In this document: one piece after another, positions 18,713-64,000 of the stretch
How positions within the stretch are numbered: the stretch's first letter is position 1
Layout: each line of letters starts with the position of its first letter
Source: Lytechinus pictus
Taxonomy: Eukaryota
Assembly: GCF_037042905.1 (NCBI RefSeq)
Contig: NC_087251.1
Location: 5,706,001-5,770,000, forward strand
Length of the DNA: 64,000 nt
Direction of reading: 5' to 3'
Notes under the pieces: generated by a model
Told to the model about the DNA's origin: nothing
The model's database searches: none
What the model saw: only the letters and a program-made list of their open reading frames with translations
Position numbers and translations under genes: made by a program

Positions 18713-21700
18713 CACAAAAACCTGAATAATGTTATAGAGTTGGTCTTACCTTGTCTTCTTAAAAACAATAAGAAAAGTGAAAAGGAATACTTAGAATTAA
18801 GATAATGACAAGAGCTTAAACTTTTGTGTTTTTTAAAACTATTTTTCATGAACTGTTTCCAATAGTGAACTTTCGTAGGTGAATATGTGGAAAACAACTC
18901 AAAGGAGAAAAGGAAAGACCACGATGTAGAGCGCCACCTTGATCTCCCTAAGGCATACAGAAGAACTAGCCTTTGGTATGATTTGTTTTTTGTGTTTTTT
19001 GTTTGCTGAACCTGATTGTTTAATATATGTTGAACCTGATCATATGATGGTGGTACTTTTAAGAAATTCATATCTCAATTATGGATTTGAAGCTGATGAC
19101 ACATAATGTGAACGGATTGGGGGACTTTAAAGCAAGGAAACGTTATTTTAATTATATGCTTAAACAGAACAAAGATATTATCCTTTTACAGGAAACTCAT
19201 TCTGTTGAAAAGGAAGAATCATTATGGAGAAATCAAGTTAGAGCTGATATTATTTTCAGTCATGGAACTTCTAAGAGCAGAGGAGTATGCATTATATTAA
19301 GAAAGACACCTGATTTTAAAGTGTTAGACTCCATTAAAGATATAATGGGACGATTTTTATTGGTAAAAGTTGAAATTCAGAAGAAAGTTTATGTGATTTG
19401 TAACATATATGCACCAAATAATGAGACGGATCAGGTTGAGTTTTTTAAGAAGGTAGACTTGACCATACAAGATAATGTTGAAAATGGGGAAATTCTTATA
19501 ATTGGTGGGGACTTTAATTTAATTCAAAACCTTGATCTGGACAGGGCAGGTGGCTCAATGAAAAGTATTTGGAAGCACTCTGTGAATCTTATAGAAAGTA
19601 TGAAAATTTATTTTGGTTTGGCTGATGTATGGAGAATCAGAAACCCTTGCAAAAAAGGATTTACTTGGAGAAGGTATAACCCAATGGTGCAATCTAGATT
19701 GGATTTTTGGTTAATCCATGAATCATTACAGAATACAATTAGTGAAAATGATATTATACCGTGTGTTTTGTCTGATCATGATCATGTTAGTTTACACATG
19801 AAAATTGGGACAAAAAAGTTTGGTCTGTCCTACTGGAAATTTAACAATAGTCTATTGAATGATATGGAGTATGTTAATGCTTTAACTAATAAGTACTCAA
19901 AATGGATTGATGAGTTTACAGATAGTAATGACAAAGGAGGACTATGGGACTGGTTAAAGTTTAAAATTAGAGAATTTACTGTACCATTTTCTAAGAAGAA
20001 GAAATGTGAAAGGGAAGAGAAAAGAAAGGATTTTGAAAAAGAATTGAAGAAAATAGATGACATGATGGCAGCAGAAGATATAGATGAAGAATTAATGAAA
20101 AAGAAAAGGGAGATAGAACAGGAGTTGTTTAAAATATATGACTATTTTGCAGATGGGGCAATCTTGAGGTCAAGGTGTACATGGTACGAGAAAGGGGAAA
20201 AGAGTACTAAATATTTTTTGTCATTGGAAAAAGGTCAAGCAGCAAACTCTAATATTGATGTTTTAATTTCAGATGTGGGACGTATTGATAAACAGTATGA
20301 AATACAGGATTTCATTAAGAATTCATATAAAACTTTGTTTGAGAACAAAGATAAGGTGGAAGATGAGGTGAGTAGAGAGTACATAAGTCAGAGTAACATC
20401 AAGCAACTCACAGATGAAGAAAGAAATTCGTGTGAAGGAAACATCACTTGCTCTGAAGCTAGGGCAGAATTGTTAAAAATGGCTAGAAATAAAACACCTG
20501 GGAACGATGGGTTAACTGTGGAGTTTTATGAGAGGTTTTGGCCTTTGATATCAAAAGAAGTTATTGATTCTTTCAATTTTGCATATGAAAATAGTGCAAT
20601 GTCTGTGTCACAAAGACAAGGTACAATTAAACTCATCCCTAAGCCTGATAAAGATAAACACACACTGAGCAATTGGCGTCCCATAACTCTTTTAAACGTA
20701 GATGTTAAAATACTTTCTAAATGCTTGGCGAAGAGAGTTGCTAAGGTGATAGGAAAGTTAGTAGATAGTCAACAAACTGCCTTTATTAAAGGCAGATACA
20801 TAGGGGAAGGAATAAGGTTAATATCAGACCTTTTACAATATACTGAGGAGGAGAATTTGAGAGGTATTATGCTAGCCCTTGATCTAACAAAAGCATTTGA
20901 TTCAATAAGCCACAGGTTCATGCTAAATTGTTTAGAAGTGTTCAATTTTGGACCATTTTTCATACAATGGGTTAGAACATTGCACACTAATATAAGTAGT
21001 TGTGTTTTGGTGAATGGATTTACCACTGGCTATTTTCCAGTGTCTAGAGGAGTCAGACAAGGTGATCCTCTTGCTCCTTTACTGTTTATACTGAGCTTGG
21101 AAGTTGTTCTTACAAGACTTAATAATAATGATAATATTCAGGTTTTTGAACTTAGTGGAAAACAAATAAAGTATACAGCTTATGCTGACGACATAACTTG
21201 CTTTTGTAGGAATGTTCAATCAATGAAGATGGTTTTCAAAGTTTTTGAAGAATTCTCAATCATATCAGGTCTTTATTTGAATAAAACAAAAACGGAAGGA
21301 ATTTGGATTGGGAAAGATAGGCACAATGGAGAAAAAGCAAATGATATACATTGGGCAGACAAAAGCATCAGAGTTTTAGGCATTTATTTCTCATATGATC
21401 AGGAAATAGTCAGGAAACTGAACTTTGATAAGAGACTGGATGAAATAAAATGTACTTTCTTAAGATGGAAGAATCGGGGATTAACTTTATTAGGGAAAGT
21501 TCAACTATTGAAAACATTTGTTATGTCTAAGATTATGTATATAGTTTCCAATATTGTAATACCCGATGATTTTATTAAGGAGGTTGAAAAGTTGATGTTT
21601 CAGTTTATGTGGAAAGGCCCAGATAAGATATCACGGGCAACAATGATTGCAGATTATACCGAAGGTGGTCTGAAATTCCCGAAACTAAAATGCATGATAG

Positions 21701-23111
21701 AGACACAGCTGGTTAAGTGGATTCAGAGATACTATACATAATCAGATCATCATTGGAAATTGTTCTTTGACCATTATTGTAAACGATTTGGTGGAAAATT
21801 GATTTTTATGAGTAATTATTTTGTGAGCCAGTTGAACTCTCTTGGAATTCCCTTATTTTATCATAACTTGCTGTTAGCATGGTCCAAGACAAAGGAGTAT
21901 AATCAATTTGTTGATGATCAAGGAACCCAAGCAAGTGTACTTAGTCAAATTGTTTGGAATAATCAATATATTCTTATTGATAATAAATCAGTATACTGTA
22001 AGGCCTTTCATGAGGCAGGTCTATGTTATGTATATCAACTTTTTGATCTACATGGAAACATAATGCAATTTAATTTTTGGAAAGCAAGAGGAGTACCACA
22101 TAAATATTACATGATATATTTGGCAATAGTATCACTAGTCAGGAAGAAATGGGGAAGTTCATTTAATCAATTGTTGATACAAATGTTCTTGGAGAAAATA
22201 GATTATGAACATGATCAGTCCGTCCTTTTGACAGGAGAAATTCAAAAACTAAAAACTAGAAATATCTATGTTGATTTAGTGAGTAAATTAACACATAGAC
22301 CTGTCTGTGAGCCCCTATTTTCCACTAAATATGGGATAGAGGAGGAAGAATGGCCACAAATGTATTTACTCCCATTTAAATGCACAATAGAAGTTAAAAT
22401 GAGAGTCTTCCAGTTTAAAATTTTGCATAATATTCTCTACACCAATGAGAGATTATTTAAAATGAAGCAAGTTGAGACAGAACTTTGCACATTGTGCAGG
22501 ACCTCTGTTGAAACTCCTTTACATCTTTTTTTATGAATGTAAGGTTGCTGAAGATTTAAGACATGCTTTTGTTGATAAAATTGGTCTGAAGCTATCTGTC
22601 AGATATGAGGATCTATCTAGGAAAAGAATGATGTTTGGCTTCATAAAGGATTGGAAGGGACCACATAAAATATTACTGAATCACTTAATTATCTTATTGA
22701 AGAGATACATTTATATTCAGAAATGCAGGAATTTAGTAGTAAGTTTTATAGGTTTTGAAGCATTCATTTGCAAAATCAGACATATAGAATTGGTAATTGC
22801 TAAACAAAAGCACAAAGAAAACATGCACTATAGAAAATGGTCCCCTATTGAGAATTTATTTTAATTATCCATAATTATATTTTGATGAAACAATCCAAAC
22901 CACCAGGGACTCATTTTTTAGCTTTTGCATCAGGTCTGTTTGTTTGTTGTTTTTTTTTTTTTTTTTTTGGTAATTGTTACAGTGATTCCTATTTAATTAT
23001 TGTTCTTTTAATGTTATACAATTATGTAATTCATGTATGATTGTTGTTTTTGTAATGTTACGAAAAAATCTTGAAAATCAATAAAATTTGGAAAAAAAAA
23101 AAAAAAAAAAA
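18713..23111 (+). mobile_element. 5'-truncated L1/Tx1-clade non-LTR retrotransposon
   Basis: 15-bp TSD AATATTCAAATGCTC at 18698-18712 and 23112-23126. AATAAA at 23080 and poly(A) at 23092-23111. Contains a full ORF2; no ORF1 is recognisable. Confidence 0.95.
19081..22864 (+). pseudogene. LINE ORF2 (APE endonuclease, reverse transcriptase, C-terminal Zn knuckle), ~1260 codons, with one nonsense codon and one +1 frameshift
   Basis: APE motifs THNVNGL, LQETH, NIYAPN, GGDFN, SRLD, SDH. RT motifs KTPGNDG, NWRPITLLN, DLTKAFD, GVRQGDPL, YADD. In-frame TAA at 21739-21741. Removing an extra T in the run near 22526-22532 restores CTLC..ETPLHLFYEC. Confidence 0.95.
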
Positions 23112-56833: not shown

Positions 56834-57006
56834 GACAGAAAAAAAAGTTAATTACGGGAAGGGGGGGGGCACTTTAGTCTAAAAAATTGACAGAAAAAAA
56901 TGTTAATTACGGGAAGGGGGGGGGGGGCACTTTAGTCTACAAAAATTGACAGAAAAAAATGTTAATTAGGGGAAGGGGGGGGGGGCACTTTAGTCTACAA
57001 AAATTG
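56834..57006. repeat. Three-copy ~56-59 bp tandem repeat with poly-G
   Basis: Unit GACAGAAAAAAA(T)GTTAATTACGGGAAG(G)nCACTTTAGTCTACAAAAATT. Confidence 0.9.
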
Positions 57007-59157
57007 AATCGTCCATCAAGGTAATAGTAGTAAGTACTCCAATCTAGACATAAATCATTATTCTAGTCTTCAATCCATACAAGAAATCATACAGATTTCA
57101 AGTGCAGTAACCATTTAGAAATTAAAAAATGGAATTGCCAGATTAGCTACATAATATCAGGGAACAGCATGCTATAAGGGTATTATGATATAAAAAATCC
57201 TATATTTAATTTCTACATTCCCCCTTGAAGACTCTCATAGTAATGTCTAGGCCTATATGATTAAGTATGTGTAATTAAGCAGCACCATCAGTTTAACTGA
57301 TTTTCAATGGAATGTAATTTATATTTGATGGCAGAAAAAAAGAATACAGGAAATTAACTATGCTGGTCTAAGGGAAACAATCCTTTTCGTATACAGTTAC
57401 TATGGCAACCTTACAAACATTTTATTTCTCCTCGAAACACGAGAACACACACTTTTAGCACCATCTTCTTTCTCCTCAATCAAAATTGCAAGATATCATG
57501 GCATTTGCACAAAATGTTGAGACAAACTCTCTAAAGATTTCAAAAAAATTAGTGAGTATTAGTGAACTGAGGACCATTGCCTCAAAACGGCAACCCAGAT
57601 ATAATGGAAAGATGTACTTATCTGTGCAGTATCTAACATTAACATGTATTTCACACATTCAAGCTTATTTATTGCAAAATTGGAATTAAGTATCCTTTAT
57701 GGCAAGTATCTGTTAAAAATGAAAGTAACCTTCAGTATTATTGTCAAAAAGTCACTGATATCATAATTGAAATAAAACAAAATGCAGAGCAGCATTTACT
57801 TGTAACAAATAAAATAAAGAGATTTGGATTAAAAAAAGTTTTTAAGGAATTTACTGAAACCAAATGGTCATTCATTTCAGAACTACAATCTACCAAAATG
57901 GATGGATTTCATTATGAAGTAGAGTATGCAAACAATTAATCTCAAAATTTAAGAATAAAACATATTATTGACTGTTATTCAGCAAAAATAATAGTCTATT
58001 CTATATCGTCATTTGATATCAATAATTCTGAAGTTGATTTTTTTTAAATATATCAACATTGGAATAGATAAGCTACCTATAATATCCTACTTCAAGTAAA
58101 GTATTGTCATACGTTCTCTGCACAGGAATAGCTAAGAGTTGTGTGATGAATAACATTAAATAAAACTGTTGCAAATATTTAATCAAAACTTTGCTATTAA
58201 GGAGTCAAAGAACTTGTGTCTAAGAAATTCTATGTGAGGTGACTCTTTTCTTCTAATGTATCAAACAATCATCTGATCATGAATGTTAGGTCCCGTCAAA
58301 CCTGATAACACTTGGCAATAATGGTAATAAAATCTGCTTTCAGTTTAACACTCTTCTCTTCATCGGGTTCAATAAATAATGGAAGACTTAAAAACTTCAT
58401 TGGTTCATTTTTCTCTCTTGGTAATACGTCATGCCCTATCTGATTCTTTCTTTCCCTCAAATAAACTGATACATTATTCTAATTCAGTCCATGCATCTAC
58501 ATGTATACTTGCCACTTCAAGTGTGCAAAGTTTTGATGAAAAAGGTACTTAAATGTATACATGTAGTAGCAATTATTCAATGCTTCCTTTGTATTGTTCT
58601 CTTTTTGGAATCCATAAATAATGGCTCTATCCCATAGCAACCACACTGACCAGGCACAGTCTTCTTCTAGCCATGAGATAAATCTCTATCCACATCACAG
58701 TTTAAATGTTTTATCCATCTCAGCTCTGATACATACTTCTCCATGATAGGGTTAGTTCTACAAAAATTTGCGACATTGAGTCAAGAAAAAAACATAAACA
58801 AAAACAAGAGGAACCTCCAACTCTGTTCTTTGTCAAAAGTCCTGATACATCAATTGCAAATATATTTTTCACAGCGTGACTCGGCAGTTGTTTTCGCGAT
58901 AAAAAAAGTTTGACGAAATCAAATGAGCGAGTTCACAATCACACTTCAAGACGGCATTGCCTCGCACACACTGACCCACAGGAATGACGGTTTTCTTGTG
59001 TCGAACAAAAAAAGGAGAAGGGGCAAAGTTGGGGCTTTTCCCTCAAGATCAAAATGGCACAAATGCTGAGTATGTTTTAATCTCCCCTCCTTGATTTTCT
59101 CCTTTTCTTTCCATTTTCTGTCTCTTCAACAAATGAAAAAAAGTCTGGCACTTTGGT

Positions 59158-59289
59158 TTAAACCGAACTTCCATCCCTGATGACTGAGGTACGGGCAGGG
59201 GATGATTCTGAAATGGGCGATTTGGACGACCAGCTTTCAAAAAGACGTCGTATGAATGATCTTCGATGTGGGTCATTTCTTTTGAGACT
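59158..59289 (-). CDS. BAD: BAD-like BH3-only protein, terminal coding exon (SLKRNDPHRRSFIRRLFESWSSKSPISESSPARTSVIRDGSSV*)
   Basis: Strong acceptor (TTTTTTTCCTTTTCTTTTCTCTTTTAG) in phase 0, matching the upstream donor; open to TAA. SFIRRLFESW resembles vertebrate BAD C-terminal SWTRVFQSWW. Confidence 0.75.
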   Translation of the reverse strand, partial: SLKRNDPHRRSFIRRLFESWSSKSPISESSPARTSVIRDGSSV

Positions 59290-60706
59290 CTAAAAGAGAA
59301 AAGAAAAGGAAAAAAATTAAAGTGAATTTCAATGTATCTTTTGACAGAGGTTATCCTTTGGTAACATTACTGTTCATTCCACAGATCTAAATGACACCCT
59401 CAGGCTATATCATGGTAATATATTTCAATAAGTGTGAAACATATAAATTCAAATGATTGATAAGTTTCAATGATTTTAGATTTACCAGAATCAATCAGAT
59501 TTCTCATTGCAGATTAACCTGGTTTTGATCAATACTCCAAAAGAATTACATGATTACCATAGAAACAGACAAAGCCTTGATAATAAACAGAACCCAGGTT
59601 TTCAATTAAACAACCTTGTTACCACCCTTCAACCATCATTTAACACATTATCATTGCAGTCTATTCAAATTGCCTTTTCATTTCATGGGCAAGGGCAGTC
59701 AATCTTACACAATAGAATCAAATACAATATATTCAACGGACCAAAACAAGTTTGAGTAGGAACAAATCTTTTGGTTTCATAACATGATTTGTGCCAGATC
59801 AATTTAAGCGTGAATTCTTTGTTTGCAGTTTTATCTCTTTTTTTTAACAGGTACATATAAGTGCTATACATAGAACATAACTGTCTCTTTCTCCTTGAAA
59901 TGATATTTTTAAAGTTTTTGTTGTGTTTCATTTCACTATAACCCCCTAGAAACTAACTGATAACAAACATAAACTACATGTATAAGATACACTGGAATAT
60001 ATTTTGAAATTTGAATAAATTTGTTTGCTTTATGTACACAATAGAACCCCAGGTGTAATTAAAATAAAACTAACGGTATAAATCAAGTTGAGGATGATTG
60101 ATCCATGAAAAAGTGCTATGAACATAATTACATCCGTTTCTTTCTAGAATCTGACCTTTCTGACATGTACTATGGATTCATATACTGTTTGATTGACAAT
60201 TGATACAGGTTTGGATTTGCATGATACAAAGAATAAACAGTGATTTATCTTTTGTTTGTTCTTCTCTCAATGTAATATGTTTGTATTTACTCAGAAGTGT
60301 TACAAAGACAGGAAAGATATACCGAAAATACATGTAATGTTCAAGTATCATTCACAATAAACTATCAGACAATTATGTGCTTTGTTCTTTTTTATCTTTT
60401 ACAGTGCACATGATAAAATTCAATACATTTCAGTTTCATGAAAAGAACAAGTGGATAAACGATCTGCTTATTAATTGTAAAACCATACAGCATGATGATG
60501 ATCAGTTACAGTTAAGTACATATATATGCTTTTCACACTGCACTTTTTTCCCTTAACCCCGGGAAATTGGTGGGGCTAAGGGGGGGCCTTAGCCCCACCA
60601 ATAGCAAAGTGGGCTAGCACGGTAAATAGTACGGTACTATCTGGCCCTGCAAAAAAGCAGGGTTAGCCGGCCTATTGTGGTGCTAGCACCACAATTACGG
60701 TGCTAA

Positions 60707-61804
60707 TATGCTTTTCACACTGCATTTCCTTAACCCCATACTATCCTTAACTCCGGACTATACTTAACCCCATACTATCTTTTTTTCGATTCACACTGTG
60801 TTTCTTAACCCCATACTATTTGCTTAGCCAGGGTTAATGCCTTAACCTCGGGCAATCACACAGTTCATTAATGTTGATGATTTTACCATACAGAGCGCGA
60901 TTAACGTGCAATTTCGACTTCTGTGATTGGCTAATGCTTAGCCCCACTTTTCCTTAGCCCTGTTTCGTTTCACACTCTTCGCACCGCAATTGTGGTGCTA
61001 GCACCACAATAAGCCGGCTAACCCTGCTTTTTTGCAGGGCCAGATAGTACCGTACTATTTACCGTGCTAGCCCACTTTGCTGAAACGTAGTGTGAAAACG
61101 AAGTGGGCTAAGCTTAAAGGGGAATCCAGCCTTGGCCATAAAATGTTGTGTTGGGAAGGAGAAAAATAAATTAAACAGAATGGTGAAAGTTTGAAAGAAA
61201 TCGGACGAGCAATAAGAAAGTTATAGCTGCTTTAAAATTGAGATCACTAATATTATGTAGATTTCAAATTGGCAACTGAGTAAGTAAATTATGACAAGGG
61301 GCAAGGACAACTTTCCCATAGGCCATGTACTTTATTATCAGGGATTTGTGGTTTTCTCCTAAGTACCCATTCCCCTGGGGCAGTAATCTAAATATAACCC
61401 AGGTAGTATATCGTTTTATGTCCTCATGAAAGAAAAATATAATTTGAAATAAAACTTTTGGGAAAAAATGACATTTTAGCCATAATATGTATTGGAGTAC
61501 ATGGAAGAGAAGTCCTTGCCTTACATCACTATGACATCCCATATGCGGCCGATTTGAAGTCTCCATGGGTATAGTGATTACCAATATTTACAACTTTTTA
61601 AAATTCATAACTTTCTATTTGTTTGTCCAATATTGTTCAAACTTTCACCTATCAACTTGTCTGATTTTTCTTTTCCTTATAAAAACAAGTTTTTATTTGG
61701 GTTGGATTCCCCTTTAACCCCGAGAAATTGGTGGGGCTAAGACCCCCCCTTAGCCCCACCAATTTCCTGGGGTTAAGGGGAAAAAGTGCAGTGTGAAAAG
61801 CATA
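60707..61804. mobile_element. Second copy of the same Harbinger-like MITE, inserted inverted into the first
   Basis: Same TIRs; TAA TSD at 60704-60706 and 61805-61807; interior is the reverse complement of the outer copy. Confidence 0.82.
61118..61713. mobile_element. Kolobok-like MITE nested in the inner Harbinger-like copy
   Basis: TTAA|AGGGGAATCCAGCC ... GGTTGGATTCCCCT|TTAA. Confidence 0.9.
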
Positions 61805-61999
61805 TAAGAGATGCAGTGTGAAACGAAACAGGGCTAAGGAAAAGTGGGGCTAAGCATTAGCCAATCACAGAAGTCAAAATTGCACGTTAATCGCGCTCTG
61901 TATGGTAAAATCATCAATATTCATGAGCTGTGTGATAGTCCGGGGTTAAGGCGTTAACCCTGGCTAAGCAAATAGTATGGGGAAAGAAAGACAGTGTGA

Positions 62000-62135
62000 T
62001 TGATTGATTGATAAAAAAATTAACGACACTATCAACACATGCGTGTCATATAAGTGTCGGACAGTTAATCTGGAAAGGTTACTATAATACAGTACAAATT
62101 ACCCTAATGCAACTTTACAAAGGATCAGGATTATA
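62000..62135 (-). mobile_element. Short retroposon 3' fragment with (CAAT)n tail
   Basis: Interrupts GTGTGA/ATCG of the outer MITE (intact in the inner copy near 60790); begins TTGATTGATTGAT on the plus strand. Confidence 0.5.
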
Positions 62136-62341
62136 ATCGAAAAGAAGATAGTATGGGGTTAAGGATGGTCCGGGGTTAAGGATAGTATGGGGTTAAGGAA
62201 ATACAGTGTGAAAAGCATAATACCTTCCCCCATCTTCATTATCGATTTGTGGTTACCAATACTGCAATTGATGATCATTGTTCAACTATCTGATATTCAT
62301 CTGGGATTTATACCAAATCTATATAATGAAAATAAACTTAC

Positions 62342-62571
62342 TCTTTGGCCTTCAAACAATGCCACAAATTCATCTCCAATCCGTCTCAGTTCTCGTCCAG
62401 TAGCGATCTCGGGGGCAACGGGTCTCGCTGGAGCAGAATTGGCTCTACTCCGACGGATAGTTATGAGGTCTGGTAGGGGTTCGGCAAAAGAATTGTCTCC
62501 TGCTGGCTCATTAGGAGGGACTGACTCTGGCTCAACGCTTCCCTCAGAGAAGAACCGTGTTCTTCTAGATT
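62342..62571 (-). CDS. BAD: BAD-like BH3-only protein, BH3-encoding internal exon (230 bp, phase 1 to phase 0)
   Basis: Acceptor TATCTTTCAG and donor GTAAGT. Encodes SRRTRFFSEG...IRRSRANSAPARPVAPEIATGRELRRIGDEFVALFEGQR, i.e. a BH3 LxxxGDxF preceded by RxRxxSAP at BAD-like spacing. Upstream exons were not securely identified. Confidence 0.85.
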
Positions 62572-64000
62572 CTGAAAGATACAATTCAAATACAAACATA
62601 TGATCAAGGAATATACACAAATTATATGTATCAATCCAGTATTATAGTTCTCTTAAACAGTTGGTCCCTTTACCAGCAATTTTGATGATGTAAAGAGTTG
62701 AGTATGAAACAACCAATTCTCATCTTTTCTCTATTTACACATTACAAATAAATCAATGCACTTCTACTAAAGTGTATGAACATAATGCAAGCGCACACTG
62801 ACCCATCAATACTATATCTCAATGTCAGCAGAAGATACATACTTCCTGGCGATGCCATATCTGATCGACCATCCACTGATATACAGGCACAAATAGGTGG
62901 TCTTAACTTCATAGTGCAGCACATCAAAAGAACTATTACCTTATCCAAGTACTCTTGTATAGTAAACTGACTATTCTATGCTCTAGCCAACAGTTTTTCA
63001 CTGCCCACTCAACTGTTTGCCTATTGTTCACACCCCCACACCCTTTCGACTAACGATGACTAATCACTGGAACAGAAATAGCCCTATTACAAGGAAGCTA
63101 ATAAACTTGGCTTGTGCACCTTGCAACTCTGTGCCCATTGTTTGGTTATGATGACTTGGATCCAGTGGCATCACCACCACTGGGTCCCCCTTCCTTGTCC
63201 AAATTATCTTCAAGCCTTTGAGCCACGATAAAGTTCAACAATCCTGTCTGGTTATGAATCCACATGAAGTCTACTGAAACATCTCATCTGGACTTCATTT
63301 CTCATAAAAGGAAGTTGTGGTCAGGGTTTTATTACAAGTAATCAAAGTCACTGAAGATGTGATCATGTGGGTCGCTATCCGAGAGATCACTGTTCTTTTC
63401 ACAGCCACTGTTCCAAGTCCAACTGAGGTGACTCACCATGTGTAGGTCTTCTAGTATTGTTTTGGTCCTGCAGTCATAACAAAGAAGACCTTGGGTCTTA
63501 TGTCATTACCCAGGGACCAGGGGAATCCCTATGATGCAACTCTATAAATCCCACTAAAACGTATGGTATACCAGGGAGAATTCCCTGGGTATACATATGC
63601 AGTATGCAAATGAAGAATAGAATCTGATGCCTGTCCAAACCTGCCCTGATTTTCTTGCACAAAGGCTATGCAATAATTGTTCAAATATTGTGAACTAAAT
63701 TAGGAGGGACAGAGAGAGAGAGACTGAAAGAAAGAGAGAGAAATAAAAGAAAGAGTTACAATGACCAATATGATTGACGAACAAAAACATTGATCCTAGC
63801 ATTATCATGCTAATCAACCTGAAGACTCTACCATCTATTACACCTTTTGCCTCTAAACAAAGCAAATCAATCTACATGTAATCAACCTTCTATTTTCCTT
63901 CTCACTTGTTGTTTGTTCCTCTCTTCCCATTGGCCAATACTTTCCAGTAGGCTCTGTACATATTCCCTATGTGTTTACATGTGTTGCGTACTCTCCTGTC

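Follow-up and report, generated by a model that had tools for sequence, protein, structure and literature searches.

The 64,000-nucleotide stretch of the Lytechinus pictus genome analysed here (contig NC_087251.1, positions 5,706,001 to 5,770,000 of the forward strand; hereafter the window, with coordinates counted from its first letter) contains, on its minus strand, the last two coding exons of LOC129265098, a gene annotated as 'uncharacterized' whose product carries motifs typical of two vertebrate BH3-only proteins, BAD and BIM. This protein (P0001, 370 amino acids, aa) has a counterpart of 373 aa in S. purpuratus (LOC100888667). The penultimate coding exon (exon A, 62571-62342, 230 nt) provides residues 252-327 plus two bases of codon 251, is flanked by an AG acceptor in phase 1 and a GT donor in phase 0, and encodes both RxRxxS motifs, a PLPD motif and the BH3 helix; its translation is 100% identical to P0001. 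It is separated by a phase-0 GT-AG intron of 3052 nt (59290-62341) from the coding part of the last exon (exon B, 59289-59158), which provides residues 328-370, including a predicted helix at 339-348 (FIRRLFESWS), and the stop codon. Translated separately, the two exons yield residues 252-370 of P0001. They were the only matches in a tblastn search of the window with P0001, the first 250 residues of which lie past the right end of the window; a mini-exon candidate near 63466-63436 was dropped, having no match to this protein. Contig records point to a long 3' untranslated region, with an inferred extent of 56978-59157 (the spliced contig reaches at least 57877), AATAAA signals at 57673 and 57426 and AU-rich elements at 58620 and 58378. 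At the other end of the protein, Met45 shows almost no variation and lines up with residue 1 of the crinoid protein and of P0012; the true start codon may be Met45 instead of Met1.

The splice junction 62342->59289, proposed from the letters of the DNA in an earlier sequence-only reading, is joined exactly on a contig of run X1 (record 3, presumed RNA), in which record positions 1007-1238 correspond to 62342-62573 and positions 1239-2651 to 57877-59289, with 0 other letters and 0 gaps. The read evidence comes from 4 of 24 sequencing runs. Mean depth in the raw RNA runs X19 and X21 is 3.7-6.5 in the bins with both exons and 0-1.1 in the unique intron bins 59512-60515, and their first mates map on the plus strand only, as expected for minus-strand RNA; no raw-read 62342->59289 joint is found among the 15 joints listed of 103. 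The implication that annotation had missed the gene does not hold, as LOC129265098 is annotated and a 373-aa BH3-only candidate from S. purpuratus, found with human Bim, Bad and Bmf as seeds, with its BH3 on one exon and predicted to be disordered, is already in print (Suraweera et al. 2022, PMC8998228); our sequence P0004 agrees with that candidate by species and length only.

A profile built from six C-terminal stretches and run against 1.84 billion representative proteins (E <=0.001) retrieved 97 matches, 30 of which were looked up and 25 of which carry names. The family is present in all five echinoderm classes, acorn worm, amphioxus, molluscs, an annelid, a brachiopod, a nemertean and lamprey. 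Its named members come from Asterias, Amphiura, Ptychodera, Branchiostoma, Haliotis, Mizuhopecten, Lottia, Crassostrea, Babylonia, Batillaria, Dreissena, Mya, Solemya, Owenia, Lingula, Tubulanus and Lampetra, to which a separate search added Diadema, Apostichopus, Patiria, Antedon and Potamilus, and the named matches also include BAD of sharks, rays, tarpon, frog, axolotl and cow. Nearly all invertebrate members are labelled 'uncharacterized'. The order of motifs along the chain is constant: TQT, RxRxxS(E/D), PLPD, RxRxxSxP and BH3.

Four motifs noticed in the sequence-only reading lie on the minus strand exactly where it had placed them. Exon A encodes the first basophilic-kinase motif, RTRFFS (Ser259, 62563-62546), a predicted Akt/14-3-3 site, RSRANSAP (Ser296, 62452-62429), 16 residues before the BH3 leucine, and the BH3 core GRELRRIGDEF (62398-62366), in which Gly316 is encoded by GGA; exon B encodes SFIRRLFESW (59259-59230). 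The reading had staked itself on the conservation of its motifs in related species, and they are not a product of chance because orthologs keep them across phyla. In 83 of 87 non-BAD proteins, an RxRxx[ST] motif lies <=40 residues from the BH3, with Pro at +2 in 77, and an RxRxxS[EDAL] motif lies 28-90 residues ahead of the BH3 in 48 of 68 non-BAD matches. Within the BH3, where LRRIGDEF has the LxxxxD spacing, L312 and D317 are invariant in an alignment of 33 proteins; the residue before GREL is Thr in urchins and Val in most relatives.

The kinship of the RxRxxSxP-BH3 block with BAD, claimed in the sequence-only reading, is borne out. Alignment with hhalign of 33 invertebrate against 12 BAD-type proteins gave a probability of 97.6% (E 4.3e-12); the 44 aligned columns extend from the RxRxxSxP site across the BH3. 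The 97 matches include 11 proteins of BAD type, seven so named and four assigned on their Pfam scores (39-65 bits); of the jawed-vertebrate families, BAD alone is named in the matches looked up. The site, which corresponds to the mouse Ser136 type, has nearly the same spacing on both sides: 15 residues separate its serine from the BH3 leucine in 10 of the 11 BAD-type proteins, crinoid, acorn worm, amphioxus and lamprey, and 16 in urchin, starfish and sea cucumber. BAD is controlled at Ser112, Ser136 and Ser155, the latter being a PKA site within the BH3 (PMC8503815). A second upstream RxRxxS of the mouse Ser112 type, RTRFFSEG in the urchin, resembles motifs in 7 of the 11 BAD-type matches, such as RVRLYSES and RHRFNSEE in those of fish type; RTRFFS, which falls outside the stretch aligned by hhalign, is likely the counterpart of that upstream BAD site. 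Read-through gene calls suggest that a phase-0 intron lies 8-9 codons past the BH3 Phe in urchin, starfish, amphioxus, a mollusc-type match and two BAD-type matches.

Other features separate the urchin protein from BAD. It is longer (370 against 168 aa), bears additional degron-like and TQT motifs, and its BH3 core has Ile instead of Met and Gly instead of Ser (mouse Ser155). Neither exon A (20.7 bits) nor P0001 (19.0 bits) reaches the cut-off of 28.2 for Pfam Bcl-2_BAD (PF10514), and the urchin proteins remain below it, whereas crinoid (29.8), acorn worm (29.7) and five unnamed matches pass. We rejected the tail SFIRRLFESW as a BAD signature: the likeness seen in the sequence-only reading is weak, the profile alignment ends before the tail, and its letters are not kept in other echinoderms or in shark BAD.

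The BIM-type motifs lie upstream, in the part of P0001 encoded outside the window. PLSSGYGS (residues 194-201, with SSGYGS from 196) is a BIM-like degron motif and STSTQTPP (208-215) a predicted LC8-type TQT motif. The distance from the degron serine to the Thr of the TP is 17 residues in the urchin and 23 in mouse BIM, if, as we assume, Thr112 of mouse BIM is that threonine. A review table gives SRSSSGYFSF as the beta-TrCP degron of BCL2L11 (PMC10317156), and in BIM-EL phosphorylation of Ser93/94/98 by ERK and RSK is reported to recruit beta-TrCP (PMC4695108). The binders from an LC8 screen include CDKSTQTPSP of BCL2L11 and verified peptides such as TTASTQTPPQ, with Pro favoured at +2 and disfavoured ahead of the anchor (PMC6607443). 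BMF, too, carries an LC8 motif (EDKATQTL); at -3, K/R is the preferred choice in the LC8 consensus, and the mussel ortholog (P0013) has VSRGTQT, identical to the phage-selected LC8 optimum over its first seven letters (PMC3078936). Upstream of the BH3, [TS]QT occurs in all 37 long non-BAD matches, against a mean of 6.0 and a maximum of 14 in 300 shufflings, a count that is partly circular as TQT was included in the search profile. The degron pattern [DS]SG[YC]x[ST] occurs in 30 of these 37 (shuffled mean 0.12, maximum 1), in 26 of those 30 near the N-terminus and outside the profile-matched stretch. Neither degron nor upstream TQT was found in the 11 BAD-type sequences, several of which are partial. 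Several mollusc matches (P0034, P0021, P0025, P0032 and others) are uncharacterized BH3-only candidates with an N-terminal DSGYxT.

The BH3 region also has a BIM side. In a search of PDB sequences, BIM peptides rank first and BAD peptides next, and the PEI that precedes the core is shared with BIM. The urchin protein thus resembles BIM (BCL2L11; PF08945, PF06773) in its PEI..ELRRIGDEF helix and in an SSGY degron-like motif followed by TQTP, but differs from it in the BAD-type RxRxxSxP beside the BH3 and, in most orthologs, in having Ser and not Gly within it. Against the Pfam Bclx_interact cut-off of 25, exon A alone scores 27.7 bits, whole P0001 24.5 and the full-length urchin proteins 21.8-24.8, and they have no Bim_N (PF06773) match at E 10. 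The family call varies among orthologs: starfish is assigned to Bclx_interact, crinoid to Bcl-2_BAD and acorn worm to both (BIM-BH3 45.4 against BAD 29.7 bits); amphioxus and lamprey pass the BIM-BH3 cut-off as well. BMF (PF15185) and PUMA (PF15826) gave weak scores in a few relatives (E 0.004-0.03) and none in the urchin proteins. The lamprey proteins (P0093 and P0121, from Lampetra and Petromyzon; probability 97.0, E 1.2e-10 against the invertebrate profile) combine CDKCTQT, one letter off the CDKSTQT of BIM, with IPDVIPPRERSLS at BAD spacing and a BIM-like GQELRRIGDEFN.

Gly316 indeed stands in place of the serine of the BAD BH3, as the sequence-only reading had it; the lack of this switch is, on the other hand, not the invertebrate state, since most relatives across phyla keep Ser. 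We scored this position in 93 of the 97 matches, dropping three read-through models that lack the exon and one with Asn. All 11 BAD-type proteins have Ser and lamprey has Gly, while the other 81 matches comprise 74 with Ser, 71 of them reading RRxS, and seven with Gly (three urchin, one scallop and three unnamed). The serine is found in sea cucumber, starfish, brittle star, crinoid, acorn worm, amphioxus and most molluscs. In a tree of 32 named or representative rows out of about 130 proteins (a 79-residue block, 83 columns, with fragments and most unnamed matches omitted), the four echinoids make up one starred group nested in the Ser-bearing echinoderms, next to the sea cucumber. Because 74 of the 81 relatives keep it, urchins most likely lost the serine; the PKA-type BH3 site is likely ancestral and old and the urchin Gly a secondary loss. 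The unnamed fragments P0076, P0091 and P0095 have Gly in the BH3 and no adjacent RxRxxS, and perhaps represent a lineage that lost both BAD-type switches.

AlphaFold2, run on the 33-sequence alignment, predicts three short helices with a low mean confidence (predicted local distance difference test, pLDDT, 53.5; predicted template-modelling score 0.25). The pLDDT reaches 83-94 over residues 301-320, within a BH3 helix spanning 304-331, and is lower in the tail helix (339-348). The model has no sign of a BCL-2 fold, nor did the Pfam scan of the urchin proteins match a Bcl-2 domain. With low model confidence as the only proxy for disorder, the predicted protein fits the disordered BH3-only type.

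We consider it somewhat probable that this protein is a composite BH3-only sensor, with BAD- and BIM-type motifs in one chain, that derives from a single bilaterian gene behind BAD and BIM/BMF. A more extended scenario, for which we would put the arguments about in balance, holds that one bilaterian BH3-only gene, which persists intact in echinoderms, amphioxus, molluscs, annelids and brachiopods and is half reshaped in lamprey, was the ancestor of BAD, BIM, BMF and perhaps PUMA, its Akt/14-3-3, PKA, LC8 and beta-TrCP control being dealt out by the vertebrate genome duplications. The simplest account, we infer, is a single ancestral gene with its motifs divided among the vertebrate paralogs. 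The urchin protein probably acts in the manner of BAD and of BIM simultaneously. Its BH3 helix (304-331) would dock into the groove of pro-survival BCL-2 proteins and release BAX/BAK, and in fed, signalled cells the protein would be restrained by three brakes: Akt/RSK-type kinases would phosphorylate Ser259 and Ser296, leading to 14-3-3 capture next to the BH3, as in BAD; LC8 would bind STSTQTPP, the TP of which would be open to proline-directed kinases, as in BIM; and phosphorylated SSGYGS would call beta-TrCP for destruction, as in BIM-EL. In most relatives, the RRxS PKA-type site inside the BH3 may be a fourth brake, which urchins likely lost by a Ser-to-Gly change after their split from sea cucumbers, Gly in lamprey and in a scallop being likely of independent origin. 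After the vertebrate duplication, BAD would have shed the N-terminal motifs while retaining the RxRxxS sites and the BH3 serine, and BIM would have kept the degron and TQT, with Gly.

Several observations weigh against this reading. The names BIM, BMF and PUMA are absent from the 30 of 97 matches looked up, no profile match has Bim_N at E 0.01, and a query with the lamprey protein returned the two lamprey proteins only among 8000 scored candidates, a result that counts for little. Because of these three negatives, shared descent with BIM rests on short motifs plus the BH3, likenesses that can also arise by convergence; the tree holds no BIM row and its deep nodes are not resolved. The urchin TQT has no K/R at -3 of the LC8 consensus. 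The degron changes place, from 16 residues before the TQT glutamine in echinoderms to near the N-terminus in molluscs, annelid and brachiopod, and its pattern is unmatched in acorn worm, amphioxus, brittle star and lamprey; this motif may be turning over rather than descending in place. BIM has its own Akt/14-3-3 site, Ser87 (PMC4695108), and 14-3-3 control is therefore not unique to BAD. BH3-only proteins are, moreover, often described as polyphyletic (PMC11463336).

Part of this evidence would be expected if the urchin gene were a one-to-one ortholog of BAD, with TQT and degron either lost in jawed vertebrates or convergent and BIM/BMF derived from another gene, an alternative that we consider rather unlikely. 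BAD is the sole jawed-vertebrate family named among the matches looked up, the profile match is accompanied by equal site spacing and probably by a shared exon end, and crinoid, acorn worm and five unnamed matches pass the Pfam BAD cut-off. Such an ortholog would nonetheless leave BIM to a second, BIM-only invertebrate family, none of which appeared among the matches looked up (none was searched for), and it fits poorly with the starfish, acorn worm, amphioxus and lamprey proteins that pass the BIM-BH3 cut-off, in acorn worm with the higher of its two scores, and with a lamprey protein that mixes a near-BIM LC8 motif with a BAD-type site. Of the ortholog assignment made in the sequence-only reading, the homology of the RxRxxSxP-BH3 block thus stands; the label itself is undercut by the upstream BIM-type motifs and by Pfam calls that flip between BIM and BAD among orthologs. 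We conclude that the urchin protein should not be filed as BAD, because it lacks the BH3 serine and scores below the Pfam cut-off.

The converse possibility, an ortholog of BIM in which the RxRxxSxP beside the BH3 and the BH3 serine were gained separately and came to resemble BAD, seems to us improbable. It agrees with an exon that passes Bclx_interact and fails Bcl-2_BAD, with the first rank of BIM peptides in PDB and with a degron followed by TQT in the order of BIM; ESM Atlas neighbours are BMF, PUMA and BIM clusters, leads only, as all score <0.9. The full-length urchin proteins fall, however, just below the BIM cut-off, the 44-column BAD match extends past the BH3, Ser is the commonest residue at the BH3 position across phyla, and the profile recovers BAD and not BIM. 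It would be still more surprising, and we hold it very unlikely, if the protein were a disordered kinase-regulated scaffold whose BH3-like helix is no longer apoptotic in urchins, or if all likenesses were convergent short motifs. The call for experimental proof in PMC8998228 and the urchin Thr before GREL, in place of the Val of most relatives, leave some room for this, but the BH3 Leu and Asp are invariant in 33 proteins and the order and spacing of the motifs are conserved from molluscs to vertebrates. The composite sensor descended from a single gene remains our preferred reading.

An annotated locus and a likely ortholog flagged as a candidate were known already; the weight of our analysis rests on the family-wide architecture and not on the urchin glycine. 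Suraweera et al. describe candidates as potentially present in lophotrochozoans and BH3-only proteins as apparently absent from lamprey; the text of their article makes no mention of 14-3-3, dynein, LC8, phosphorylation or degrons, and its figure and supplements may include some family members (PMC8998228). As of 2022, BH3-only proteins were stated to be yet to be identified in molluscs (PMC8917759). We found no description of the composite motif layout in a search of full-text literature, most subscription papers being outside its scope. Kinship among BIM, BMF, BAD and PUMA may reportedly have been discussed already by Aouacheria in 2005. Our analysis places oyster, scallop, abalone, limpet, annelid, brachiopod, amphioxus and lamprey proteins in one family with ordered control motifs, and this layout provides a concrete model for the origin of BAD and BIM. 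If a single ancestor is true, core vertebrate BH3-only proteins would be one family and not convergent, the BH3 phospho-serine would predate the protostome-deuterostome split, and the BIM glycine would be a repeated loss. The comparison of urchin (Gly) with starfish or sea cucumber (Ser) would offer a natural experiment on the BH3 phospho-switch. The protein is also a candidate trigger for the kinase-timed death of unfertilized echinoderm eggs, a process that is proposed to need ERK in starfish and that acts via Bad in Xenopus (PMC3156807).

Two further observations concern the limits of the family. The Amphiura protein P0027 (720 aa) has a death-effector-like domain (32.3 bits, below cut-off) ahead of its BH3-only part, and may be either a real fusion or a merged gene model. 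In the ESM Atlas, a 119-member, mostly arthropod cluster lies nearest to the urchin and lamprey queries (0.86-0.87), a lead only, at scores <0.9, that some arthropods keep the family.

Elsewhere in the window, we recognized by eye no neighbour genes among the 59 long open reading frames, only transposon remains, an inspection that could miss spliced genes. The intron between the two exons contains nested inverted repeats (60523-62222, arms up to 168 nt, 93-97% complementary) that surround a high-copy element of very high read depth at ~61114-61717, and looks like a stack of non-autonomous DNA transposons. On the plus strand, open reading frames of 892, 264 and 132 aa, interrupted by a stop and a frame change (19063-22864), look, judged by eye, like the endonuclease and the reverse transcriptase of a retrotransposon without long terminal repeats (non-LTR). 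Two in-frame open reading frames at 310-1260, also on the plus strand, are, from inspection by eye, what we take to be a remnant of a Tc1/mariner-type transposase.

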